Shown piece by piece: positions 1 through 55,212 of a stretch of DNA of 61,166 nt. The stretch lies in sequence record PZ386952.1; one strand, 5' to 3'. The notes below the pieces were generated by a model. That model ran no database searches and was not told the DNA's origin. It saw only the letters and a program-made list of their open reading frames with translations. Position numbers and translations under genes: made by a program. Every line of letters begins with the position of its first letter. Position 1 is the first letter of the stretch. This DNA comes from a phage.

Positions 1-1560
1 ATGGAGCTAAACCGACAACCTGATAACATGCCGCGAGTAGTCTGGAAGCCACATCCAGGTTCACAGACACTCGCTCTATCCTGTCCTGCTGATATCATTT
101 TATACCACGGTACTCGCGGTCCTGGAAAGACGGACTGCCAGCTTATGCGTTTCCGTAAGAATGTTGGCGTAGGGTACGGTAAATTCTGGAAGGGTATTAT
201 ATTCGATCGTGAATATAAAAACCTCGATGACCTTGTAACCAAATCACAGCGTTGGTTCCCTGAATTTAAAGATGGTGCTAAATTCCTTAGCTCCAAGTCT
301 GATTATAAATGGGTTTGGCCCACTGGGGAAGAATTGCTGTTCCGTGTTGCTTGCAAAGAAAAGGATTATTGGTCTTATCATGGTCACGAATACCCGTTTA
401 TCGGATGGAACGAATTAACAAAGTATCCAGACGGGCGTTTGTTTGAAGCTATGATGTCCTGTAACCGTTCATCTTTCTTACCAGAAGATAACCCAATTAT
501 CAATCCAGATGGTACGGTCACATATTTACCAGATATTCCTCTGGAAGTGTTTGCTACCAGTAACCCGTTTGGAGCGGGGCATAACTGGGTTAAGAAACGC
601 TTCATTGACGCTGCACCGATGGGCAAAATACTCAGGAAAACTACGCGAGTGTTTAACCCGCGGACGCAGAAAGAGGAAGATGTGGTTACGACGCAATGCC
701 ATATCTTCGGATCTTATCGTGAGAACAAAAACCTAAGCCCAAAATATATTGCAGAGCTTATGTCCATCACAGACCCGAACAAACGCGCTGCATGGTTGGG
801 TGGTAGCTGGGATATCACATCCGGTGGTATGTTCGATGACCTGTGGCGTAGCACTGTTCACAAAGTACGACCATTCCCGATTCCAGCAAGTTGGAAGATT
901 ACACGTTCGTTCGACTGGGGTTCTTCAAAACCTTTCTCTGTCGGTTGGTGGGCTATTAGTGATGGCTCGGATGTTGTGCGTGAAGATGGCACTACATTCT
1001 CTACGGTCCGCGGTGACCTGTTTAGGATTAACGAATGGTATGGGACCAACGGTAAAACAAACGAAGGTCTACATTTGCTGGACTCGGAAATTGCAAGCGG
1101 TATACTGGAGCGGGAATTGGCCTGGGGTATACACGATCGTGTAGTTCCTGGCCCTGCGGATAACTCCATTTGGGATCTGGAGAACAATAACTCCACCGCT
1201 GCAACAATGGCGAAGAAAATTCGTCTTAACGGGAAGTTATACAACGGTATACATTGGAAGCGCAGTGATAAGTCTGCTGGGTCGCGTAAACGCGGATGGC
1301 AGAAAATGCGTGAGTTTCTTAAAGCTGCACTGCGGGAAGATGCGAACGGTAAACCTTTGCCCGGTCCGCGCGAGAATCCGGCAATGTACATTTTTGATAA
1401 CTGCAACTATTTCTTTGAGCTGGTTCCAAGTCTACCTCGCGATGAAGTAGATCAGGACGACGTTGATACGGAATGTGAAGACCATATGGGTGATGAAGTT
1501 CGTTATATGGTTCTGGATCAAGCTGTTTATACAGGTGTTGGCAAAACTATCGGTATTTAA
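1..1560 (+). CDS. terminase large subunit
   Basis: 519-aa ORF; Walker A-like GTRGPGKT near N-terminus; directly followed by a portal-sized ORF; ATG is at window position 1 so upstream context is not visible. Confidence 0.8.
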   Translation: MELNRQPDNMPRVVWKPHPGSQTLALSCPADIILYHGTRGPGKTDCQLMRFRKNVGVGYGKFWKGIIFDREYKNLDDLVTKSQRWFPEFKDGAKFLSSKSDYKWVWPTGEELLFRVACKEKDYWSYHGHEYPFIGWNELTKYPDGRLFEAMMSCNRSSFLPEDNPIINPDGTVTYLPDIPLEVFATSNPFGAGHNWVKKRFIDAAPMGKILRKTTRVFNPRTQKEEDVVTTQCHIFGSYRENKNLSPKYIAELMSITDPNKRAAWLGGSWDITSGGMFDDLWRSTVHKVRPFPIPASWKITRSFDWGSSKPFSVGWWAISDGSDVVREDGTTFSTVRGDLFRINEWYGTNGKTNEGLHLLDSEIASGILERELAWGIHDRVVPGPADNSIWDLENNNSTAATMAKKIRLNGKLYNGIHWKRSDKSAGSRKRGWQKMREFLKAALREDANGKPLPGPRENPAMYIFDNCNYFFELVPSLPRDEVDQDDVDTECEDHMGDEVRYMVLDQAVYTGVGKTIGI

Positions 1561-1571
1561 CTGGAGGGTAT

Positions 1572-3068
1572 ATGGGTATTGATGCAACTCACCCGCTATA
1601 TGACAAGTGGAAGGACGCATGGGTTAAGTGCAACGATTGCTATGAGGGTGAAGATAAAATTAAGGAAGAAGGTGTTAAATATTTACCGCCTTTAGCTTCC
1701 ATGATTATTGATGGGATGAATAATCCTAATGATTTGGGCTTTCAACGTTGGCTCGCTTATCGTCTGCGTGCCAACTTCCCTGACGATTATTCAAGTGCCG
1801 TTACAAACAATTTAGGTCTGCTGCACCAGAAGCCACCTACAATCCAGCTTCCTCCTGAAATGGAGTACATGCGGGAGCTGTGTACTGCGGACGGTGAAGA
1901 CATTATTGCTCTGCTACGTCGCATCAACGAAATGCAGTTAAAAAATGGACGTTTGGGCTTGCTGCTGGACTTGCCAAAAGGTGAGGATGTAAATAACAGA
2001 CCGTATATTAGCGTTTATGATGCTTTATCCATTATCAACTGGGATGATGGTAAAGATGAATTAGGCAATATCAACTTGAACATGGTTGTTCTGGATGAAA
2101 GCGGTCCTGTACGTGTCAATCAGTTTGACTGGAAAGAAGAGAAGCGTTATCGTGTTCTGCAATTAGGTCCAATGGACACAGATGAAGTTGCAGGTGGGGC
2201 GGTCTACTCTCAACATCTGTTTATTAACAATACCAATTATGATGAAGGGCAAATGATTGCTCCTTATTATAAAGGTAATACGCTGGATGAAATACCTTTC
2301 CAGTTTGTCAATACAACAGATATTACCCCAGCACCGGAAGCACCGCCATTGTTGGGTCTTGCTAACATTTGTCTAAGCATGTACCGTAGTGACGCGGATT
2401 ACCGCCAAAGCTTGCATATGCAGGGTCAGGACACCTTAGTTGTTGTTGGTGGTACTGGGGAGAATGGGGATAAAGCCCCTCAACGCATTGGTCCTGGCGC
2501 TGTCATTAACGTTGCTATTGGTGGTGACGCTAAATATGTAGGTGTTAGCGGTGACGGTTTGTCCGAGCAACGTCTCGCACTAGCAGCGGATAAGCAAGAA
2601 GCCCAAATTAAAGCCGGGCAAATGGTAAACAACACCAAGAGCACGCAGGAATCAGGCGAAGCTATGAAAACGCGTATTGCTGCGCGTACAGCTAGCCTGA
2701 TTCGAATTGCGTATACTGGTGCGGCAGGTTTGGAAAACTTGCTGAAGGTTTGCGCTAAATGGATGGGTGCTGATCCAGAGAAAGTTGTGGTTAAGCCTAA
2801 TCTTGAATTTACCAAGAGCATGTTTAACGGTCAGGACTTTGTTCAAATTATTACTGCACGCAACCTTAAAGCTCCAATCAGCTTGCAGTCTATTCATGGC
2901 TGGCTTGTTGATCAGGGCTTAACCACACTAAGCTTTGAAGAAGAAATGGCAATTCTTGAGGAAGAGCTTAAGAAGTGGCCTCTGCCTGATGATGCTAAGG
3001 CTGATTTAAACGCAGAGCAGCAAGTAAACAAAGATCCTAAGGAAGACGACGCTTCCGATAAAGAATAG
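1572..3068 (+). CDS. portal protein
   Basis: 498-aa ORF immediately downstream of terminase large subunit; size and synteny; acidic C-terminus. Confidence 0.7.
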   Translation: MGIDATHPLYDKWKDAWVKCNDCYEGEDKIKEEGVKYLPPLASMIIDGMNNPNDLGFQRWLAYRLRANFPDDYSSAVTNNLGLLHQKPPTIQLPPEMEYMRELCTADGEDIIALLRRINEMQLKNGRLGLLLDLPKGEDVNNRPYISVYDALSIINWDDGKDELGNINLNMVVLDESGPVRVNQFDWKEEKRYRVLQLGPMDTDEVAGGAVYSQHLFINNTNYDEGQMIAPYYKGNTLDEIPFQFVNTTDITPAPEAPPLLGLANICLSMYRSDADYRQSLHMQGQDTLVVVGGTGENGDKAPQRIGPGAVINVAIGGDAKYVGVSGDGLSEQRLALAADKQEAQIKAGQMVNNTKSTQESGEAMKTRIAARTASLIRIAYTGAAGLENLLKVCAKWMGADPEKVVVKPNLEFTKSMFNGQDFVQIITARNLKAPISLQSIHGWLVDQGLTTLSFEEEMAILEEELKKWPLPDDAKADLNAEQQVNKDPKEDDASDKE

Positions 3069-3163
3069 TTGCAACTTCCAAATTGATTGGTTTATATTAA
3101 CGAACACGGGGCTGGGACGGCTCAGCCCCAAAAACGTCACACGGGTGACAACGGAGATAAGAA

Positions 3164-4036
3164 ATGCAAAAGAGTTCTGTAGCTATTAGTGTTGGTCTTG
3201 CTCTAATTAATCCACGCGCTCGCGGTGAAGGTGATGTGGAATTGCAATACGAGTATGCATCCGCGGAAGAAATCCCGGCGGAATTTGCAACTCTTTACGC
3301 AGAGCAGGGCGGTAAATACGTTCTTGCAAAAGTCAAAGGTGTAGCACCTGCTGATAGCGTTCGTCGTCTGGAAAGTGCGTTAGCAAAAGAGCGTAACGAT
3401 CATCGTCAGGTGAAACAACAAATTAGCGCACTGGGGCGTCCTGTTGAAGAAGTCCTGGCGGATTTGGATCGTATCCCTGAGCTGGAAGCTGCTGCTAACG
3501 GTAAAGGCAATCCGGAAGACATTGAGAAGATGGTCAAAGCCCGTCTTGCTCCGCTTGAGCGCCAATTGCAAACTGTTATCACCGAGCGTGACACGGTTAA
3601 GCAGGAAATTGAAGGTTACCGCACTCGCGAAACTAAAGCGAAGATTAAAGATGCAGTTATTGCCGCTGCTTCTGGTGCTAAATTGCGTCCATCTGCTATC
3701 GAAGATGCTGTAACTTATGCACAGTTGCAGATGACCGTCGACGAGAATGGCAATGTGGTTACGAAAGATGGGGCTGGTGTAACTCCTTACCTGACTCCGG
3801 CGGATTGGCTGAACGAAATCCTTCCGAAACGTCCGCACTGGGTTGAAGGCTCTGCTGGTGGCGGTGCATCTGGTCCTGGCGCTGGCGGTCATCACGGTGA
3901 AGACCCGTACAGTCACGATGGTTGGAACATCTCTAAGCAGATGAACCTCTGGAAAACTAATCAATCTTTAGCTAAACGCTTAGCTGAAAAGAATGGCGTA
4001 GACCCGCTGAAGCCTGTACGTCCTGCTAAGAAATAA
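3164..4036 (+). CDS. scaffolding-like / head morphogenesis protein
   Basis: 290-aa charged, helix-rich ORF between portal and major capsid genes; RBS GGAGA upstream; Gly-rich C-terminal segment. Confidence 0.45.
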   Translation: MQKSSVAISVGLALINPRARGEGDVELQYEYASAEEIPAEFATLYAEQGGKYVLAKVKGVAPADSVRRLESALAKERNDHRQVKQQISALGRPVEEVLADLDRIPELEAAANGKGNPEDIEKMVKARLAPLERQLQTVITERDTVKQEIEGYRTRETKAKIKDAVIAAASGAKLRPSAIEDAVTYAQLQMTVDENGNVVTKDGAGVTPYLTPADWLNEILPKRPHWVEGSAGGGASGPGAGGHHGEDPYSHDGWNISKQMNLWKTNQSLAKRLAEKNGVDPLKPVRPAKK

Positions 4037-27740: not shown

Positions 27741-27876
27741 CTTTAAATGACTCCAACCATTTTAAAAGTTCATCGTCGCTTAACCCTTCCGGGACAGGTG
27801 TGGATTTATGGTTTTTATTTGAGCGCGAAAGTATAACCTTATCACAAGCTCCTTTATATGTTTCTTCATTTGTCAT
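27730..27876 (-). CDS. small hypothetical protein
   Basis: ATG at 27876 with GGAGA RBS; 48 aa. Confidence 0.3.
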   Translation of the reverse strand: MTNEETYKGACDKVILSRSNKNHKSTPVPEGLSDDELLKWLESFKDED

Positions 27877-28826
27877 ACACGTTCTCCAATTAATACACCG
27901 CGAAGGTTTTCCCCAAAGAATGCGCAAGGTTGCGGATACAAACTAAAGTCCGCAGTCTTAACCACATTTTCGAGCAATAGCAGGATATCAATATTGTACA
28001 CTCCCGTTATTGTGCGGTCCTGTAATACGAAGCTTGCACCTTCTGCATCATCGTAATGAGTACGCGCTAGACCGTTTTCAATATATACGCGAGGACGATC
28101 TTCCGCAAAAGGTTTGATTTTATGCAAGCCCTCAAAAAGACCTGGATCAACAGGATGCGCATTGCATTGAACATTTAAAATACGACGTATATCTGGCCAC
28201 TCTGCATCAATAAGCTGTGTGCGCAACCAGCGACCTTCCGGATAATGAAACGTTACGTTATTTTTACTAACCTGAATATGCGTCGGGTTAGCTTTAATAC
28301 GCAGTATTTCTTTAATAGCAACAGACGGTATTATGCAGTCAATAGGGAACTGATTACCAAACCAGTATTCCGCAATAGTGACGTTATTTGTAGCAAACAG
28401 ACTACCGTTATTAATCAGGATACCGCAAGCCCACGGGCGGGACGCATCTGAGCCTACAAACGGAGCGACAGACTTCACACCGTGTACAAAGCGAGCACCG
28501 TCTATTTCGTACAAATCGCCTTCAGGGAATACGTGCGGCGTTTCTTTATCAATGCAGCGTATAGCAACACGAAACGGACCTGACTTGATATTCAGCTTAC
28601 CGTTAGCCATCATTGTTAACTGCACTGTTTCATCACAGTTTGAGATAGCTTTAATCATAGGCCCAGCTTCGGGCTTGCAATCAATATCCAACTCAATAGG
28701 GCTACCCAGTGCGATAACACCGTTAAAGCCTTGCACCTGCCCGTCACGAATAAGAAAGCTGGTAAGCCCTTCTACCAGTTCTTTCTTTGCTACGGAACCT
28801 TGAACAAATTTAAGAGCGTCAAGCAT
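27873..28826 (-). CDS. sliding clamp-like protein (DnaN/beta-clamp-like)
   Basis: 317 aa; N-terminal ALKFVQGSV and internal segments (SGPFRVAIR...FP, DIRRILN) recall the beta-clamp fold pattern; adjacent to DNA polymerase; not verified. Confidence 0.4.
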   Translation of the reverse strand: MLDALKFVQGSVAKKELVEGLTSFLIRDGQVQGFNGVIALGSPIELDIDCKPEAGPMIKAISNCDETVQLTMMANGKLNIKSGPFRVAIRCIDKETPHVFPEGDLYEIDGARFVHGVKSVAPFVGSDASRPWACGILINNGSLFATNNVTIAEYWFGNQFPIDCIIPSVAIKEILRIKANPTHIQVSKNNVTFHYPEGRWLRTQLIDAEWPDIRRILNVQCNAHPVDPGLFEGLHKIKPFAEDRPRVYIENGLARTHYDDAEGASFVLQDRTITGVYNIDILLLLENVVKTADFSLYPQPCAFFGENLRGVLIGERV

Positions 28827-35517: not shown

Positions 35518-35635
35518 TCCGAATTGTTATGGGTTCGTTTGTTACCAACGGGGTTAAATGTACCAAAGGATTTTGTGACACGCAACCCCTTATCTGAATA
35601 TTTTTAAAAATATTTTTGATCAAGCTTAGAACTTA

Positions 35636-45802: not shown

Positions 45803-45858
45803 TTGAACACCTCTTGAAAAGTTAATAATGCGTCACGTATAGCTTTAATAGTTTCTTA

Positions 45859-46074
45859 TTACATTAATGTAATATCATCTACAGAGAATAAGCTATCATC
45901 TTGAATACATTTACGTCTGTTAATAATGTCGTCAGTATTATAATCCATAAGGGAAGGATATTCAACCTCGTCGCGCATACAAGGTCCATAAACGCTTAGA
46001 CCTAATTCAGACAGGTGTTGCATAAACCCTTCTATAGCTTTTTTGGTGTAAATAGTTGTTTTCAATTTACTCAT
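45859..46074 (-). CDS. small hypothetical protein
   Basis: Internal ATG at 46074 chosen; overlaps next ORF; uncertain. Confidence 0.25.
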   Translation of the reverse strand: MSKLKTTIYTKKAIEGFMQHLSELGLSVYGPCMRDEVEYPSLMDYNTDDIINRRKCIQDDSLFSVDDITLM

Positions 46075-46252
46075 CTTTATCGCCCTCATAAGAAATAACA
46101 ACCAATGAAGCTGAACCAATAGTGCAGCTAATACCATATGCTATCACATAAAGTATCCCTAGGCCAGTTTGCTTGTCAACCCATACAATAAGAATAACTG
46201 TAAGAATAGTCCAAATTGTCCAATATAAATTCTTTAATAATTTGTGATTCAT
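46067..46252 (-). CDS. small membrane protein
   Basis: 61 aa, two hydrophobic helices. Confidence 0.3.
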   Translation of the reverse strand: MNHKLLKNLYWTIWTILTVILIVWVDKQTGLGILYVIAYGISCTIGSASLVVISYEGDKDE

Positions 46253-46509
46253 TATTTCAGCTCCTCAATAGCTTGCAAGACCCAACGAGGATCATGTGTT
46301 CCACCGGCCAAACGACCTAATGATAGACACATTGTGTAAATAGATTCTGTTAAATGGTATCCTTTAATATCATCGTATTTACACAATTCACGAATTGAAA
46401 TAATGTCCTCAGCAAGATTATTTGGATCGTGCTGCTCGTTGATTTCTCTGCGCATCTTGTAATATTCTGCGGCTACAATTAGTTTTGGTATAATGATGTT
46501 TTTATGCAT
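46252..46509 (-). CDS. hypothetical protein
   Basis: 85-aa ORF. Confidence 0.35.
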   Translation of the reverse strand: MHKNIIIPKLIVAAEYYKMRREINEQHDPNNLAEDIISIRELCKYDDIKGYHLTESIYTMCLSLGRLAGGTHDPRWVLQAIEELK

Positions 46510-46512
46510 TAT

Positions 46513-46719
46513 TTATCCCCTTAAATTCTGAATCATTCTATCGCAGGCAGCTTTTACAGAAGAGTTCTGCCAGGATTCTTCTCGTGCTTCACAGTCAATA
46601 GGATATCCTTCATGATTATACAGACTGTCGGCTTCGGAGTAACCTTCAATATAAGCCTGCTTTGCGGTATCTATTATTGCTTGTAAAGCAATATTGAATA
46701 GTTGTTGATCCATACTCAC
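46513..46719 (-). CDS. hypothetical protein
   Basis: 68-aa ORF. Confidence 0.35.
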   Translation of the reverse strand: MSMDQQLFNIALQAIIDTAKQAYIEGYSEADSLYNHEGYPIDCEAREESWQNSSVKAACDRMIQNLRG

Positions 46720-47039
46720 TCCTTAAGCTTGACTACTGTTCTATATCTAAGAAGCTGTGCAATACATTTATTCAATTCACTTATACGGAGTTTAATCCTG
46801 AGCTTTTTGCGCAATTGCCCAATATTATTAATTTTCAGTTTTTCTAACTCTTTTGTTAAATGGTTGAGAAGATTTAATTGGTAATCTAAAATAAACCCTA
46901 TTCTAAAATATGTGCTAGTAGACTTAGGCGGTATCACTCTAGGTAACACAGGAAAATTGTCAATGTTCATTCTATACCTCACAGTCTTTGATATTTTTAG
47001 GAATGAGAAAATATCGATTGTGTTTTGGAAAATTATCAC
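46716..47039 (-). CDS. hypothetical protein
   Basis: 107-aa ORF, start uncertain. Confidence 0.3.
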   Translation of the reverse strand: MIIFQNTIDIFSFLKISKTVRYRMNIDNFPVLPRVIPPKSTSTYFRIGFILDYQLNLLNHLTKELEKLKINNIGQLRKKLRIKLRISELNKCIAQLLRYRTVVKLKE

Positions 47040-50776: not shown

Positions 50777-50882
50777 ACCTACCTCCTAACAGCACTATAC
50801 ACAATCCATAGTAATGCAGCCACAATTATTCCACATGAAGTTATGATGTGAGCGGATTGTTAATATATAACCACATGTGATG

Positions 50883-50975
50883 GAAAGTTTTGGGTAGGAA
50901 TAGTTGGTGCTCCACAGTTTGCACAATGTGACGGAAAGTTTTGTGAGTTTTGCAAAGTTTTGCGAAGTTTTGTGG
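50883..50975. repeat. iteron-like direct repeats (A)AGTTTTG
   Basis: Five copies, four of them at 9-11 bp spacing (50936-50974). Confidence 0.7.
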
Positions 50976-51129
50976 TGCCACTGTTGCTAAAAACTTTAAT
51001 AAAAACAATAAGTTGGTGCAGTAAGTTTTTGCGTTTTGGGGTAAAACGCATTTTTTACCCTAACACCCAAATCCCGACTGTTAGTAAAAAACGTATATAA
51101 ATCAATAGCATAGATACTAAATGAGTAGC

Positions 51130-51495
51130 GATTGGAATGGGTAGAAATCCAAATGATGGAAGTGGAATAAATTATTCCTACTTGATAGAATAATGGAATC
51201 GGTACTCCAGAGCGCAAAAACCTAAAACTTTCAGTCAACAGGCTAAAAACGGATAGAAACTAAAAGTTAATAAGTAATACCATAACTATATATAAAATAA
51301 GGATTTATTATTAATGTATATAGTACCTATTGGTATTATTTGAATGTTTTTTGGTCATTGTTAAAAAGTCCCAAAACTCACAAAAAGTGAAAGAATACAA
51401 TTCGTGACAGGATTGTTAATGGAATATGGTGTATGGATATACAGTATTATTCCAGATTCCGGAATAATTGGAATAATGGAATAAATTATTGAACT
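51130..51495. repeat. TGGAATAA direct repeats and 15-bp palindrome GGAATAA-A-TTATTCC
   Basis: Palindrome at 51164-51178; tandem GGAATAATTGGAATAATGGAATAAATTATT near 51461-51490. Confidence 0.7.
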
Positions 51496-51605
51496 ATTGT
51501 GATCGGAAGGTATATCAAGCTATAATGCGCTTAATCGCGGGATATTGGAGGAGGACTTTATTGCGCGGTTAACCGGACCAGTAGGAGGGCTGGCCCGGAA
51601 GTAGT

Positions 51606-51932
51606 TTAGAGCTGTACAGGTGTGAAGTGGGCTAGCGTACCGTCGGACATAACACCCGACAGTTTTTCGCTCACCCATTCGGACCAAATGCTATCCGGTT
51701 CCTGGCGGTGCACAAACCAGATTTCGGATGTGCCTTCTTTGCGCATCGGTTGTACTTCTACGAGGAACTTGTCCTGCATAAGGCGAGTGAAGCATACGCT
51801 GGTCATTGGAACCGGCTTTTCGTGTTTATTGTAATAAGGGATTAATATTTTATTTCCGAAGTCGGCAACTTCATAAACTGTTCCTTTGCGTAGACCCCGG
51901 ATGTCAGTGTAAGAGCGGATGAACGTTTTCAT
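51606..51932 (-). CDS. hypothetical protein
   Basis: 108-aa ORF. Confidence 0.4.
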   Translation of the reverse strand: MKTFIRSYTDIRGLRKGTVYEVADFGNKILIPYYNKHEKPVPMTSVCFTRLMQDKFLVEVQPMRKEGTSEIWFVHRQEPDSIWSEWVSEKLSGVMSDGTLAHFTPVQL

Positions 51933-51934
51933 GT

Positions 51935-52111
51935 TTATTTCCTTACGAACACAGAGCCGACAAATAATGTTGATTGAGTAGCAGCTTGCTCGATTAATTC
52001 GCCAACAAGCTGGGACTGCGTCAGAGGTTTAAGGTCTTCTTTGGCGCGTGCTTCATTTACACGGCGCTGAAGGTCTTTTAGGTATTGAGTTGCGAAGCCG
52101 TCTAATTGCAT
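51935..52111 (-). CDS. small hypothetical protein (58 aa)
   Basis: ATG with AGGAGT RBS; MQLDGFATQYLKDLQRR...; below ORF-track cutoff. Confidence 0.4.
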   Translation of the reverse strand: MQLDGFATQYLKDLQRRVNEARAKEDLKPLTQSQLVGELIEQAATQSTLFVGSVFVRK

Positions 52112-52168
52112 TTTCGTTACTCCTAGGGCTCCCGCAGAAGCCCGTTGGTTGAACAGTGTGGTTATAGA

Positions 52169-52783
52169 TTATGCGTCCAGTCCGTTGTATTTGCGCCAGG
52201 CGTAGAACTGAATGGCCACCGTTGTTCCGTTGTAAGAAGGCATTGCAGCTTTCATTTCTTTCAGCCCCGGCGTGCGGCCCAGTTCCTTCAGAAGTTTGTC
52301 GCCCATTGCCCACACTTCGGCGGTTTTTCCTTTGAGAGGCTTGCGAGCGCCATTTTTGAAATCACAGCGAGCAGCTTTTGCATTCTGTTTTGACGAGGCA
52401 GCTTTTGGCTCTTCAATTTTGATTTCAGAAACCTGCGTGGCAGCTTTTGCATGTTTCATATCTTTCTCTTCCTCCTGCTCCAGAGCTTCGAGGCAGCTTT
52501 TGACGATTTCCGGATTTACCATCGGGCGCAGTACCGAGACGCTGGCAGCTGGCGCGGCGGTCGGTGCCGGGACTTTCTGCTCAGGCTGTTGCGCTTTTTC
52601 ATGATCGCGCAGCACCTGAAGAACTTCCTTCTCGATAATGTAAAAACCGATCTCGTCCTGATGGATAAGCTGTTCGTGTGCGTCGCGTGCAACCTGGCCC
52701 CAGCGGGTCTTCAGGGCGCGGCGTGCATTCGTTTTCATGGTGTAGCGCATTTTGTCCTGTTCGCGGTGAGTTACTTTAGACAT
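52169..52783 (-). CDS. hypothetical protein
   Basis: ATG at 52783 with AAAGGAG RBS (track start 52843); Ala/Pro/Lys-rich middle. Confidence 0.4.
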   Translation of the reverse strand: MSKVTHREQDKMRYTMKTNARRALKTRWGQVARDAHEQLIHQDEIGFYIIEKEVLQVLRDHEKAQQPEQKVPAPTAAPAASVSVLRPMVNPEIVKSCLEALEQEEEKDMKHAKAATQVSEIKIEEPKAASSKQNAKAARCDFKNGARKPLKGKTAEVWAMGDKLLKELGRTPGLKEMKAAMPSYNGTTVAIQFYAWRKYNGLDA

Positions 52784-52856
52784 GGTATAGCTCCTTTCGT
52801 TAAAGTTAGTTTGCTTATTATTGCCCACCGTGATAGTAGGCAATGTATAAGAAAAC

Positions 52857-53105
52857 TTATTGCACGATTGCTACGAAATCGGCGGTTGCGATATCCATGC
52901 TTGCGAAAGCAACGATGCCATAGTCGGTGTCGTTTTCGGCGTTAAACGCTTTGAGGAACTGCTGTACCGCTGCTTTATGGTTAAGCGTTACGTCGATAGC
53001 ATAGTCCCAGCTATAGACTTTGCGCTTGCCAAAACCTTTAACTGCAATGCGAGCGCCTTTAGTGTTGGTTGGTGCCAAAAATTTGGTGACGATAGAAGTA
53101 GCCAT
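52857..53105 (-). CDS. hypothetical protein
   Basis: 82-aa ORF. Confidence 0.4.
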   Translation of the reverse strand: MATSIVTKFLAPTNTKGARIAVKGFGKRKVYSWDYAIDVTLNHKAAVQQFLKAFNAENDTDYGIVAFASMDIATADFVAIVQ

Positions 53106-53174
53106 GATGTATATCCTCGTTTTGTTTAAGTTGACTTATTATTGCCCAGTCAGATCAACTAGGCAAGATATAAA

Positions 53175-53327
53175 TCACTTAATTTGTACCAAATCGTATT
53201 CTTTGTAAATTTCGCTAATGTACATATCGAACTGGCCCATTAAGAAGATTTCGGCTTCCTCCCAGCTTGGAGCAGATACATAACCAGCTATTTTACCGGA
53301 CTCGAGTTCCACTAATTTGAATTCCAT
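53175..53327 (-). CDS. small hypothetical protein
   Basis: ATG at 53327 with AAGGG RBS; TGTGGTTAAG copy lies just upstream on + strand. Confidence 0.3.
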   Translation of the reverse strand: MEFKLVELESGKIAGYVSAPSWEEAEIFLMGQFDMYISEIYKEYDLVQIK

Positions 53328-53570
53328 GATGTAACCCTTAATGTGGTTAAGCAGTATTGCTTTGTTGAAGTAATAATAGCCTTGCATCGTGATATTGAAT
53401 AGGCCAAAAGTGCTATTTTGATATTGTTTTGCATCTAGTGAAATTTATGCTTGCCCTGCATGTTTAGCACTAATGGCCTAACTAACATCACACCATCTGG
53501 AGTATTCGCGCGGGCGCACACATACATATAAAGCTGCCAAATATTTTTTATAAAAAGATGCAAAAAGGTG

Positions 53571-53599
53571 TAGACACATGATCGGTCTAGCGCTACTAT
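53571..53599 (+). promoter_or_regulatory. candidate sigma70-type promoter for + strand early-type gene block
   Basis: TAGACA, 17-nt spacer, TACTAT; ~50 nt upstream of ATG at 53649; lies in divergent intergenic region. Confidence 0.3.
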
Positions 53600-53648
53600 A
53601 TACACATACCGCAAGGGTACTACAAATTAACTTAAAGGGGTTTACATC

Positions 53649-53933
53649 ATGTCCATTGTTACTATGTCATTCTTCGACCATTGCAATAACGAAAAACAAA
53701 TTATCGTTAACCTGCAAAAAGGATCTGTTGTTGCACGCAATGCAAACCGCCAATGCATCGCGCTAACCGATTTCGCATTCCGCCTTAACGTGGACAACGC
53801 CACCGCTAAAAATATCGTTCACGATACAGCGTTGGAAGCTGCCCACGCTGCGAAGGATAAAGGTATCCGCGCCGCACGCGAAATCATGCACAAGGCGCTC
53901 GGCATTACGTTCTTCATTGGCGTTAAGGGGTAA
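53649..53933 (+). CDS. hypothetical protein
   Basis: 94-aa ORF, RBS AAAGGGG; first gene of + strand block. Confidence 0.45.
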   Translation: MSIVTMSFFDHCNNEKQIIVNLQKGSVVARNANRQCIALTDFAFRLNVDNATAKNIVHDTALEAAHAAKDKGIRAAREIMHKALGITFFIGVKG

Positions 53934-53938
53934 CTACT

Positions 53939-54079
53939 ATGGCACGCAAATACACGCTTACACGCGAACAGCACGCGTTATTGATTGCAGCAATGCGCGC
54001 AGAATATGCAGTACACGGCTGGCATAGCGCCATGATGCGAGGTAAAAGCATATATGCGGACATATGCTCTCAAGAATAA
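53939..54079 (+). CDS. small hypothetical protein (46 aa)
   Basis: ATG with AAGGGG RBS; MARKYTLTREQHALL...; below ORF-track cutoff. Confidence 0.35.
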   Translation: MARKYTLTREQHALLIAAMRAEYAVHGWHSAMMRGKSIYADICSQE

Positions 54080-54641
54080 CGCACACAGCAGCACCACAGC
54101 GAGCTAAAGCTCAAAGGTAATGGTAATGCATTACTAACACACAACGAGCGCGCTTTACCCCAAAAAGCGGCGCTAATTTCAACACTCACAAGCTGTACGT
54201 TAACGCGTACGGCTTGCTCTGCTATATGCGCCATGTATATAGCTAGCTCACGATATACATCAATATAATGACGAATGAAATAGATTTGTTTGGAAGAATA
54301 ACGGATCTTACAGTCACAGACAGGTCCAATGAGCTGACTCATAGACCCCACCTAGGATCATCAGGGTACTAATAATCACCCGAGGGCGCCTTATCCATCC
54401 TGATAGTAAGTGCTTGCCTAAATCTCACCTATCACCTCACTATCCACCTACATCCATGACCCCACCTACCTTCTTTTTGAATATATTGCGCTCATCCTTT
54501 CTAAATATATGGATTTTGGTAGTAAATTCTAAGTCGTCAACGTATAATTCGTCTTGTAGCTGCTCCATAGCTACCATCTTTGAGCGGATGCAACCAATTT
54601 CTATCAATTCACACCTGTTTTAGAGCATCAAGGAGGTATTT
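54080..54641 (+). other. palindrome-rich non-coding region
   Basis: GTAATGCATTAC (54123-54134), ACGTTAACGCGT (54198-54209), GCTATAT...ATATAGC (54221-54243), CACCT x5 (54424-54470); internal ORFs (54070-54351 -, 54414-54623 +) look spurious. Confidence 0.5.
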
Positions 54642-54893
54642 ATGTGCGACTCCAGTGCAAGCGCTACACCCAGCACCTCCAGCAATGTGGTTACAGAGGT
54701 AAATGCAATGCGATTAGGTCCATATCGCGGCTATTATGGTCGTGCTGCATGGAATGACGCTACTCAACGTTTTGAAGGCTGGATTATCTGTCCGGAACGT
54801 GTTAAATTTCACTCCGTAAAAGAGAAAAATATCGTTCTTAATTTTCAAAAATGTGTCACTAAATATGTAGAGGAGCAAGAAGAATGCGTGTAG
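54642..54893 (+). CDS. hypothetical protein
   Basis: 83-aa ORF with RBS AAGGAGG. Confidence 0.45.
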   Translation: MCDSSASATPSTSSNVVTEVNAMRLGPYRGYYGRAAWNDATQRFEGWIICPERVKFHSVKEKNIVLNFQKCVTKYVEEQEECV

Positions 54894-55162
54894 AAGAGAT
54901 TGTTAAAGGTAAAGAGTATCGTTTACTGGCTGATATTGGCGGTGTTGGGTATAGTCCGGGCGATGGTGTTGAGTTCCGGGAACTGAAAGCTGGTTCTATT
55001 GTTACTGTTAATAAGGTGGTGTTTGATCTGCATAGCCTTTTCGGGCAGTGGAACCATACTGTAATTGTTAGCCAGGGTGACGATAAATACAATGAAGAAG
55101 AGGATGCTTACGAAATCAGTTATACTGGTCTTGTAGGCGCCAATTTCCTGGAGAAAGTGTAA
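54884..55162 (+). CDS. hypothetical protein
   Basis: 92-aa ORF overlapping previous stop. Confidence 0.4.
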   Translation: MRVEEIVKGKEYRLLADIGGVGYSPGDGVEFRELKAGSIVTVNKVVFDLHSLFGQWNHTVIVSQGDDKYNEEEDAYEISYTGLVGANFLEKV

Positions 55163-55212
55163 TTATCAATCTATAATGGGCTCTACGGAGCCCTTAATTA
55201 TCTGGAGGAGAT

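Follow-up and report, generated by a model that had tools for sequence, protein, structure and literature searches.

A gap of about 630 bases (54080-54707) lies between two small phage genes in the genome of an E. coli Seuratvirus (Queuovirinae), and the question raised by this locus is what such a stretch does if it does not encode a protein. The DNA analyzed here, called the window, is the complete genome of that phage (61,166 nucleotides; PZ386952.1). A first-pass annotation had marked 54080-54641 as a palindrome-dense non-coding region that may encode a structured non-coding RNA, host-factor binding sites, or an alternative origin. The non-coding region was real but was drawn too short: since the conserved downstream gene begins at 54708 and not at 54642, the gap probably reaches 54707. 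On balance, we regard the gap as probably a control region, non-coding and mosaic, that lies at the boundary of two operons, an ordinary function and the most likely one. Its non-coding status, modularity, conservation pattern, and standing as a compositional outlier were all established.

Modular organization of the gap

Comparison with relatives showed that the gap is built of modules, namely a variable left part, Unit L, and Unit R. No coding signature was found on either strand across about 40 relatives, which supported the earlier view of the region as non-coding regulatory DNA. The flanking genes matched only families of unknown function and did not inform the mechanism, and a search of 5,426 E. 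coli genomes for the source of the gap DNA gave no match.

The left part begins with an end-of-module segment after the upstream gene (54076-54134, + strand), which holds the direct repeat GGTAATG-GTAATG as well as the palindrome GTAATGCATTAC with the core TAATGCATTA. This segment was retained with 81-84% identity behind differing upstream genes in Seurat, RCIP0359, Greed, and slur01, and in the short-allele phages its counterpart was found within a longer inverted repeat, AGCTAATG...CATTAGCT. Sequence-divergent hairpins occupied the equivalent post-gene position in Seurat, STP-SP5, and yong3, those of STP-SP5 and yong3 being of unlike sequence at the position of the 54123 palindrome segment. 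The segment is followed by a variable filler, the long allele (54134-54340, + strand), which was present in eight GenBank records, all of Seuratvirus, and at this locus alone. The remaining relatives carried in its place a C-rich allele of about 75 bp with GCACAGC and GACCC repeats. Among its carriers the long allele was 86-92% identical, and the identity of the flanks was higher.

Within the long allele, the strong hairpin CAAGCTGTACG-(TTAACG)-CGTACGGCTTG (54189-54216, + strand) has a stem of 12 bp, with a folding energy of -18 to -21 kcal/mol in seven of the eight phages and one compensatory exchange from A-U to G-C. In the SA126VB record this hairpin was annotated as a terminator by WebGeSTer and TransTermHP. 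Our scan for intrinsic terminators within 54080-54641 found none, and the hairpin is followed by GCUCUGCUAUAU, which is not a U-tract. Because a U-tract is missing behind either hairpin, intrinsic termination was not supported. The 54189-54216 hairpin is a candidate 3'-end-protecting or terminator stem. Downstream of it, the promoter-like site P1 (54240-54269, + strand), recognized by consensus match only, consists of TAGCTA, an 18-nt spacer, and TATAAT. Its -35 hexamer reads TAGCCA in relatives versus TAGCTA in the window, its TATAAT was kept in all eight long-allele phages, and the SA126VB record annotates the site as a promoter.

The palindromes that had been pointed out in this part fared unequally. 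The 12-nt GTAATGCATTAC at 54123-54134 is indeed a perfect palindrome, and the 7-nt inverted arms GCTATAT and ATATAGC stand at 54221 and 54237. By contrast, ACGTTAACGCGT, described as a perfect palindrome at 54198, starts at 54197 and is not palindromic; it consists of GTTAAC overlapping ACGCGT and lies within the loop and the top of the 12-bp hairpin at 54189-54216. Five palindromes of at least 8 nt placed the region in the top 3% or so of 562-nt windows, a density that is moderately unusual. The palindromes were mostly not conserved in relatives; the GCTATAT/ATATAGC arms and a hairpin at 54147-54174 had decayed there. The comparison indicates that most of the palindromes are incidental.

Unit L and the C-rich tract

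Unit L (54344-54471, + strand) is a conserved non-coding block that was present in every relative examined. It contains GACCCCACCTA at both 54344 and 54458, ATCCATCCTGATAGTA at 54393-54408, and three of the five CCACCTA copies of the genome. All of the 19 loci that were read had kept the unit, and these covered the HNH-cassette variants, SD04, Salmonella phage STP-SP5, and Hafnia phage yong3 as well. The first-pass annotation had counted five CACCT units within 50 nt; the cluster exists, but it comprises four units within 54426-54467 (at 54426, 54433, 54445, and 54463), and further copies lie outside it at 54349 and 54612. A run of three CACCT at the allowed spacing was expected 0.02 times in genome shuffles, and its sole occurrence was in this region. 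A role of CACCT or CCACCTA as a genome-wide operator was rejected, since repeats elsewhere in the genome were only chance-level 10-12-mers.

The C-rich, G-poor tract at 54417-54486 (+ strand; 27 C and 2 G) is a candidate rut site. Among the 70-nt windows of the 61-kb genome it ranked first for the excess of C over G and was also the lowest in G, and it was the only one of the ten most C-over-G-skewed windows to fall in a + strand gene block. It lies 338 nt past the preceding stop codon (54079), and no conserved ORF intervenes. The C-over-G asymmetry (31-36 C and 10-13 G per 100 nt) persisted in Seurat, STP-SP5, and yong3 despite their differing sequence, and the C-rich, G-poor property was thereby kept in four lineages. 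The tract has the composition of a Rho-dependent terminator, being untranslated, C-rich, G-poor, weakly structured, and about 70-80 nt long. Judged from composition alone, 54417-54486 is likely the Rho-loading tract on rightward read-through RNA. The strict conservation of ATCCATCCTGATAGTA and GACCCCACCTA exceeds the needs of a rut site and suggests that these blocks may have a protein-binding or DNA-level role.

Unit R and the promoter-like sites

Unit R (54473-54641, + strand) is a portable, replaceable module, a putative promoter and leader. Positions 54446-54595 were near-invariant in the E. coli group and 54596-54640 were variable, and nucleotide diversity was 0.013-0.035 in the core versus 0.11-0.18 in the flanks. 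Unit R was absent from Skure, Dru_SM1, and WildeMaa; in these phages and in phiG7 its position was taken by an HNH cassette that carries a TGnTAAAAT promoter of its own. The cassette replaced 54472-54683 in Skure and WildeMaa, and in Dru_SM1 and phiG7 its junction differed slightly; the junctions recurred immediately 3' of CCCCACCTACC. The same four phages and SA80RD carried a divergent form of the downstream gene, and the cassette sequence was read in four of these five, SA80RD being the one not read. In SD04 only 54505-54641 of Unit R was kept, downstream of inserted genes. The window itself has no endonuclease gene.

The promoter-like site P(+) (54520-54548, + strand) consists of TAGTAA, a 17-nt spacer, and TATAAT, with an AT-rich tract upstream. 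Its perfect TATAAT, which had been placed at about 54544, was confirmed at 54543-54548, and a second one, the -10 hexamer of P1 at 54264-54269, had been overlooked. The -10 of P(+) was conserved in the E. coli group, was TATACT in STP-SP5, and was not conserved in yong3. Back-to-back with P(+) and overlapping it is P(-) (54513-54540, - strand), which consists of TTGACG, a 16-nt spacer, and CAAAAT and scored 9/12 in the consensus scan. The position and spacing of P(-) were common to four lineages, with GTGACG-16-TAAAAT in yong3 and CTGACA-16-CTAAAT in STP-SP5. P(-) was the sole promoter-like site of the region that passed the scan rules, while P(+) and P1 combined a perfect -10 with only three of six matches at the -35. 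Promoter-like sites were not in excess (six versus 4.8 expected in shuffles), and their hexamers were conserved across lineages. A hairpin, GTAGCT-GCTCCAT-AGCTAC (54556-54574, + strand), is found where the P(+) transcript is predicted to begin; its counterpart in STP-SP5 is GTACC-AGTATAA-GGTAC with one exchange of G-C to C-G, and yong3 lacks it.

In every alternative module a promoter-like element was found just past Unit L, namely the native TATAAT, TGCTAAAAT in the HNH cassettes, and TGTTAAAAT in SD04. The presence of such an element in each replacement is expected if transcription stops at Unit L. The earlier suggestion of host-factor binding sites is plausible in an ordinary sense only, as promoter-like hexamers for RNA polymerase and a C-rich tract suited to Rho.

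A proposed model of a probable operon boundary

From these features we infer promoter activity, Rho dependence, and transcript ends as follows. Transcription that has passed rightward through the short early genes (53649-54079) would continue into a stretch of untranslated RNA, which would first fold stable hairpins at the 54123 palindrome and, in this allele, at 54189-54216. The RNA would next expose the C-rich, G-poor 70-nt tract 54417-54486, of which the CACCT/CCACCTA units are the visible part. Since the composition of this tract fits Rho loading, transcripts are probably terminated in or just past Unit L, and the terminated transcripts are probably trimmed back to the hairpins. The portable module 54473-54641 would then restart transcription for the next gene, the conserved CDS from 54708, by means of its AT-rich upstream tract, the TATAAT at 54543, the overlapping leftward promoter-like site, and the 5' hairpin. 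The curators of the SA126VB record independently annotated both a terminator and a promoter in the gap.

A possible terminal repeat

A second reading, which is possible but doubtful and is compatible with the operon boundary, takes Unit L as the right boundary of a long direct terminal repeat that would span 51165-54392 of the window (about 3.2-3.7 kb). Unit L would then mark a physical end of the packaged chromosome, ATCCATCCTGATAGTA would lie one base outside the cut and would serve, together with the flanking CCACCTA/GACCC repeats, as a terminase or concatemer-processing signal, and the repeat would carry the divergent early genes. The main evidence is the linear GenBank record of ECP2304 (OR880647.1; 63,590 bp), which contains an exact 3,695-bp duplication at both ends. 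Positions 1-3695 of that record equal 59896-63590, and the ends align to 51165 and 54392 of the window. The right end of the duplication (54392-54393) falls inside the gap, with diverged sequence to the left and near-identical sequence to the right. This is, however, a single database record, and an untrimmed long-read assembly overlap or a headful end would look alike; no other record begins or ends at 51165 or 54392.

The placement of the two boundaries speaks for a terminal repeat. Both lie in non-coding DNA. The left one is within the repeat TGGAATAAATTATT, which has an exact second copy at 51477, and is about 50 bp from a mosaic junction, while the right one is at a mosaic junction, one base ahead of the most conserved non-coding block. 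On the other hand, the palindrome of the left boundary was missing in Seurat-type phages, and mosaic junctions are so dense that a coincidence within a few bases has about a 7% chance by our own estimate. A cut-site motif shared by 51165 and 54392 was sought and rejected, as only a loose TGATAG resemblance at differing distances was seen.

Related phages gave further support. In the sister-genus phage 9g, a physical end was mapped by reads to the equivalent intergenic region, and crossing reads pointed to a terminal repeat (PMC4276943). Phage iggy has a measured direct terminal repeat of 1,091 bp and a TerL in a clade with that of Seuratvirus, which counts in favor of a terminal repeat in the genus as well (PMC10484667). 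Nevertheless, the end-containing region of 9g had no significant similarity to the region studied here (z<=1.7 against the window and <=3.5 in any comparison), and the short motifs shared between them, ATCACCTCAC and AGGTGGATAGT, were not statistically significant. The large terminase matched only a generic terminase domain and had no PDB relative, so the packaging type cannot be inferred from it. A literature search covering any Seuratvirus found no transcriptome and no terminus mapping.

The presence of Unit L in every relative, as against the replaceable Unit R, also agrees with a terminal repeat, which would explain why Unit L, alone among the parts of the gap, was never lost, why mosaic junctions cluster at 54392, and why every right-hand module has a promoter. 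Such a repeat would define the physical ends and the packaging signal of a widely used E. coli phage group that includes CAjan and several phages of the BASEL collection. Each virion would then hold two copies of the early genes, with a bearing on phage engineering, sequencing coverage, and the order of gene entry into the cell.

Non-coding RNA

Another reading, which we consider unlikely, is that a non-coding or antisense RNA is transcribed leftward, with the conserved core supplying both its promoter and its body. Such an RNA would start near 54506 from P(-), would be rich in G and AGGUGG motifs, and would be antisense to the 3' portion of the rightward early unit. It gains from P(-), which alone passed the promoter rules (TTGACG-16-CAAAAT), held its spacing and position in four lineages, even in yong3 without the + strand TATAAT, and is followed on the minus strand by the conserved Unit L blocks. 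The -10 hexamer of P(-) is weak, however (four of six matches; CTAAAT in STP-SP5), the phages with the HNH cassette had lost P(-) along with Unit R but kept Unit L, and no terminator could be recognized for the RNA.

The more general proposal of a structured non-coding RNA found no positive evidence in Rfam, fold stability, or covariation, and these results weigh against a leftward RNA as well. Rfam gave no match, whether for the whole window at gathering scores or for the locus at E<=5, and a tRNA/tmRNA search found none. The fold z-scores of the conserved core, -0.94 for the + strand and -0.06 for the minus strand, indicate ordinary stability. Consensus folding of 24 distinct sequences with RNAalifold on both strands gave no helix with convincing covariation, the covariation seen being single events confined to poorly aligned distant relatives. 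Pattern scans of IMG/VR and metagenomes for distant relatives returned E. coli-group Seuratviruses only, which reduced the power of the covariation tests.

Coding potential and replication origin

Very improbable, too, is the encoding of small proteins, either by a minus-strand ORF of 45-55 aa (54440-54607) or by the plus-strand gp70 of Seurat. In most relatives the minus-strand reading frame is open; it coincides roughly with the conserved block and is annotated as a CDS in SHIN8, KS_A3, ECP2304, Greed, and OddieOddie; a + strand ORF is annotated across the region in Seurat and CAjan. Yet the minus-strand ORF (54443-54577) had 2 synonymous versus 13 non-synonymous changes, and the plus-strand frame had 9 versus 33 and was interrupted by a stop in one relative, as against 12 versus 1 in the neighboring control gene (54708-54890). 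Frameshifting indels occurred within both ORFs (-1 nt in CAjan, +2 nt in the metagenome contig L044), on inspection of the sequence neither ATG of the minus-strand ORF was preceded by a Shine-Dalgarno, the plus-strand product is low in complexity, and the ORF region was missing in the HNH-cassette phages. A 93-aa minus-strand ORF in the long allele occurred only in the window, where it was created by a 2-nt deletion; its counterpart stopped after 40 codons in all seven relatives compared, and the changes were mostly non-synonymous. Pfam and PHROG searches with all candidate small ORFs of the region gave no family match. These results did not support a protein-coding gene, and the initial statement that no ORF fits here was right in substance, as the ORFs of 34-93 aa on both strands were rejected by the comparative evidence.

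The same approach placed the start of the downstream gene. The segment 54642-54707 (+ strand), a leader ORF or variable N-terminal extension, has a strong Shine-Dalgarno and an ATG followed by 22 poorly constrained codons. It showed 4 synonymous versus 8 non-synonymous changes, compared with 12 versus 1 from 54708 on, and frameshifting indels in five genomes. The downstream gene starts with a GTG equivalent to 54708 in the HNH-cassette phages, and its 61-aa form is annotated in SLUR25, ECP2304, and Skure.

An iteron-type or alternative origin, in which CACCT iterons would stand beside an AT-rich unwinding tract at 54470-54535, can be set aside as hardly credible: the significant repeat cluster does adjoin an AT-rich stretch, and there are 7/9 DnaA-box matches at 54391 and 54441 (a perfect TTATCCACA in one metagenomic variant), but the AT-rich, TATAAT-containing half was missing in Skure, Dru_SM1, and WildeMaa with the HNH cassette instead there and in phiG7, the similar phage SA80RD matched neither half of the region in searches, the CACCT spacing is irregular (7, 12, and 18 nt) with one of the four copies specific to the window, the CACCT/CCACCTA motif was not found near the replication genes, and the GC-skew turn merely tracks the change of gene orientation. 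The repeat-dense non-coding stretch at 50780-51600 is far more origin-like and is near the primase gene, which was assigned by homology to an ECP2304 CDS annotated as primase.

Comparison with known systems

If the gap is a normal operon boundary, as is most likely, these results chiefly serve to improve annotation across the genus. Some six small CDS calls in its GenBank records are spurious and can be removed, for the conserved family PHROG 24875 the gene start shifts from 54642 to 54708, and the locus is identified as a hotspot for recombination and homing endonucleases.

The closest model for the order of elements is phage lambda, in which tR1 with its rut sites is a Rho-dependent terminator followed by a restart promoter. 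The region studied here shares with tR1 the untranslated RNA past a stop codon, a C-rich, G-poor, poorly structured tract of at least 70 nt, upstream stem-loops that could set processed 3' ends, and a new, here predicted, promoter for the next unit. Unlike tR1, it has no recognized boxA/boxB-like antitermination signals, it is known from sequence alone, and in Unit L conservation extends to specific sequence blocks, beyond what a rut site would require.

In T7, the short-repeat arrays SRL and SRR reportedly flank the terminal repeat (credited to Dunn and Studier 1983). They are said to consist of C/A/T-rich, G-poor units such as CACCTAAAG just outside the 160-bp repeat, with one heptamer in common between the arrays on both sides. 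The CCACCTA units resemble them in beginning 34 nt outside the putative repeat boundary. In contrast to T7, the AAGTTTTG units that lie beyond the left boundary (50880-50975) form an array of unrelated sequence, and the repeat itself is putative.

The Nonagvirus phage 9g has a physical end and a terminal repeat in a 603-bp intergenic region with opposed promoters (PMC4276943). It belongs to the same subfamily, and in both phages a long untranslated region, with predicted opposed promoters, lies close to where the leftward early block meets the rightward block. CACCT-type units, which also occur here, flank the mapped end of 9g on both sides. The regions differ in having no significant sequence similarity, that of 9g is by gene order nearer to 53400-53650 of the window, and a terminal repeat is indicated here by the record of the relative ECP2304 only. 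Finally, the insertion of a promoter-bearing HNH cassette is like that at the hotspots of free-standing homing endonucleases in intergenic regions of lytic phages, and such a hotspot accounts for the mosaicism of the locus, not for its function.

Extent and coding status of the gap

The phage is an E. coli Seuratvirus of the subfamily Queuovirinae, with a complete genome of 61,166 bp. Its large terminase gene begins at position 1. Gene orientation is rightward over the first ~24 kb, switches to leftward as far as 53.4 kb, and is rightward again from 53.65 kb up to the end of the genome. The stretch at 54080-54641 lies ~430 bp inside the last rightward block, flanked by a 46-aa gene (53939..54079) on the left and an ORF beginning at 54642 on the right. 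Nucleotide comparison of the 900 bases around it gave matches to 31 phage records, with identities of 90-99%. Almost all of these are Seuratviruses of Escherichia, among them CAjan, Seurat, slur01 and GottfriedDienst of the BASEL collection.

ORFs of 34-93 aa were present on both strands, and different annotators chose different ones in their gene calls. In 15 aligned genomes, the minus-strand ORF 54443..54577 carried 2 synonymous and 13 non-synonymous substitutions, and the plus-strand frame named "gp70" in Seurat carried 9 and 33, plus one stop codon, against 12 and 1 in the neighbouring control gene (54708..54890). Indels were found inside both ORFs (a 1-nt deletion in CAjan and a 2-nt insertion in metagenome contig L044). 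The 93-aa minus-strand ORF was the product of a 2-nt deletion seen only in the window; its counterpart in seven relatives stopped after 40 codons and evolved freely. The protein-family search of the candidate small ORFs also gave zero matches. Together these results ruled out a protein-coding region, and the non-coding status proposed in the first-pass annotation was upheld.

Codons 1-22 of the 54642 ORF, which follow a strong SD and open with ATG, showed no constraint, with 4 synonymous against 8 non-synonymous substitutions, and frameshifts disrupt them in five genomes; they are for this reason a variable extension or a leader ORF. Where a homing-endonuclease cassette is present, the phage begins this gene with GTG at the equivalent of 54708. 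The conserved gene within 54642-54893 (PHROG 24875, function unknown) thus appears to start at 54708 (MRLGPYRGYYG...), and the gap probably extends over 54080-54707.

Modular structure of the gap

Comparison of relatives showed that the gap is assembled from successive modules that meet at sharp junctions. The first (54076-54134), which includes a hairpin-forming inverted repeat, was retained behind differing upstream genes; in STP-SP5 (Salmonella) and yong3 (Hafnia) the same position holds a hairpin of other sequence. The second (54134 to ~54340) occurs as two unrelated alleles, and the long one, carried by the window, is the least conserved part of the region (86-92% identity). Just two elements were maintained within it: the hairpin at 54189-54216, with a folding energy of -18 to -21 kcal/mol and a single compensatory exchange, and a perfect TATAAT at 54264, which the first-pass annotation had not listed. 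The locus takes the short-allele form in metagenome contig L050 (ERZ1026901 NODE-154), possibly a phage closely related to this one.

Most of the features listed in the first-pass annotation were confirmed. In palindrome density, the region ranked no higher than the top 3% of windows. The palindromes listed are for the most part incidental, and the remaining two palindromic hairpins of the long allele decay in relatives. The 12-nt palindrome GTAATGCATTAC was present at 54123 and the GCTATAT/ATATAGC arms at 54221 and 54237, whereas ACGTTAACGCGT, starting at 54197, is not palindromic and forms part of a real 12-bp hairpin.

Unit L (54344-54471) was found in every relative examined and carries GACCCCACCTA in two copies, CCACCTA in three, and the block ATCCATCCTGATAGTA. 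The reported CACCT cluster is a genuine part of this conserved C-rich unit, although it has four copies in 54426-54467 rather than five, the second being window-specific. The cluster is clearly not a product of chance: 0.02 were expected in shuffles, and there was no second occurrence genome-wide. With 27 C and 2 G, 54417-54486 is the genome's most C-over-G-skewed 70-nt window and also its lowest in G. Of the ten windows with the strongest skew, no other falls within a + strand gene block. The skew was retained in Seurat, STP-SP5 and yong3, even without sequence conservation. A diverged variant in metagenome contig L048 (ERZ1031095 NODE-64, ~2070-2090) has TTATCCACACTGATAGTA as its conserved block, where other phages have TTATCCATC or TGTCCATCC; this makes a perfect DnaA-box consensus, TTATCCACA, which is probably a coincidence.

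The core of Unit R (54473-54641), at 54446-54595, is almost invariant: its nucleotide diversity is 0.013-0.035, close to that of the adjacent gene, compared with 0.11-0.18 for the flanks. Despite this core, Unit R is missing from Skure, Dru_SM1 and WildeMaa. In these phages and in phiG7, an HNH homing endonuclease of 157 aa with its own extended -10 promoter-like element replaces window 54472-54683, at a slightly different junction in Dru_SM1 and phiG7 (Skure L007 2644-3117; Dru_SM1 L011 2645-3118; WildeMaa L017 2159-2632; phiG7 L024 1508-1981), and SA80RD was grouped with these variants by its downstream gene. In SD04, ~430 bp of inserted small ORFs separate Unit L from Unit R. Cassette junctions recurred directly after CCCCACCTACC, which makes the locus an insertion hotspot. 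SD04 and phiG7 also have a small ORF encoding a hydrophobic peptide (MSLIGLASAFVLG...); it lacks annotation in the SD04 record, while the phiG7 record lists it as a 31-aa protein.

The TATAAT noted earlier in the right half was confirmed at 54543 as the perfect -10 of a rightward (+) promoter-like site in Unit R; the -35 of this site is weak, and an AT-rich tract lies upstream. A leftward promoter-like site on the minus strand (TTGACG-16-CAAAAT, 54540..54513) overlaps it, and a hairpin (54556-54574) lies at the predicted start of the rightward transcript. Position and spacing of the leftward site were constant in all four lineages, and the rightward -10 was conserved in three of them. Because the replacement cassettes carry an extended -10 (TGCTAAAAT or TGTTAAAAT) within ~100-130 bp after Unit L, in addition to the native -10 of Unit R, each version of the locus brings a fresh putative promoter right after Unit L.

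Interpretation of the region

The finding is a real control region, non-coding and conserved yet modular, and its most probable role is that of a terminator-plus-promoter boundary. Rho-loading sites are conventionally recognised as untranslated RNA that is rich in C and poor in G, and processed 3' ends are commonly set by stable hairpins lying upstream of them. On balance, we favour an operon boundary, in which a short rightward early transcript would end in the gap via hairpins and probable Rho-dependent termination in Unit L, and Unit R would restart transcription for the 54708 gene and the genes beyond. The comparisons establish the modular structure, the absence of coding and the outlying composition, whereas promoter use, Rho dependence and transcript ends are inferred. 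Such an element is of an ordinary kind; its delimitation is new for this genus. In the next intergenic gap, 55149-55203 holds a promoter-like TGGAGA-17-TATAAT (10/12 match), directly followed by a terminator-like hairpin, GGGCTCTACGGAGCCC, with a T-rich tail.

A more tentative possibility, compatible with the operon boundary, is that Unit L is a terminal-repeat boundary and processing signal. The GenBank record of ECP2304, a close relative, is linear (63,590 bp), with an exact 3,695-bp duplication at both ends. Its right boundary aligns with window 54392; the invariant block ATCCATCCTGATAGTA starts at the next base, and this is the exact point where diverged sequence switches to near-identical sequence. 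The left one aligns with 51165, within a TGGAATAAATTATT repeat that recurs exactly at 51477, and this left boundary is also ~50 bp from another mosaic junction. However, the duplication is known from this single record and could be an untrimmed assembly overlap, and no other record begins or finishes at 51165 or 54392.

An alternative origin, as the first-pass annotation suggested, is unlikely at the finding because its AT-rich half is dispensable and its repeats are irregular. Far more origin-like is 50780-51600, ~800 bp of non-coding, repeat-dense sequence lying upstream of the primase-homologous gene block by a few hundred bases; as an origin or an early control region it is a stronger candidate than the finding. 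Its AT-rich core (51222-51345), conserved in five aligned lineages, lies between exact repeats (copies of TGGAATAAATTATT at 51163 and 51477 and of GAATAATGGAAT at 51188 and 51471); AAGTTTTG units are arrayed over 50880-50975, and the left part has two unrelated alleles. The left end (51165) of the ECP2304 terminal duplication also falls within this region. Elsewhere in the genome, the longest perfect palindromes, AATATTTTTAAAAATATT and TATTACATTAATGTAATA (18 nt each), lie at 35597-35614 and 45857-45874, and the lowest-GC kilobase is 46001-47000 (34.7%). The structured ncRNA also proposed was unsupported, as Rfam gave no match at the locus with E<=5 included, fold z-scores were ordinary and consensus folding of the relatives' sequences revealed no convincing covariation.

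Comparison with known systems

The most interesting point is 54392 as a possible physical genome end. Besides the ECP2304 duplication ends, this possibility draws on phage iggy, which has a measured terminal repeat of 1,091 bp and a terminase in a clade with Seuratvirus (PMC10484667), and on phage 9g of the sister genus, where a read-mapped physical end, with terminal-repeat evidence, lies in a comparable intergenic region (PMC4276943). The 9g region (L058 1770-2376, record 27770-28375) has no significant similarity to the present one, which counts against the terminal-repeat reading. Without sequence homology, it shows the same style of short-repeat architecture: ATACCAGGTA occurs three times at a spacing of 26-27 nt, GTTATAGTA also three times, and the mapped end has CACCT units to either side.
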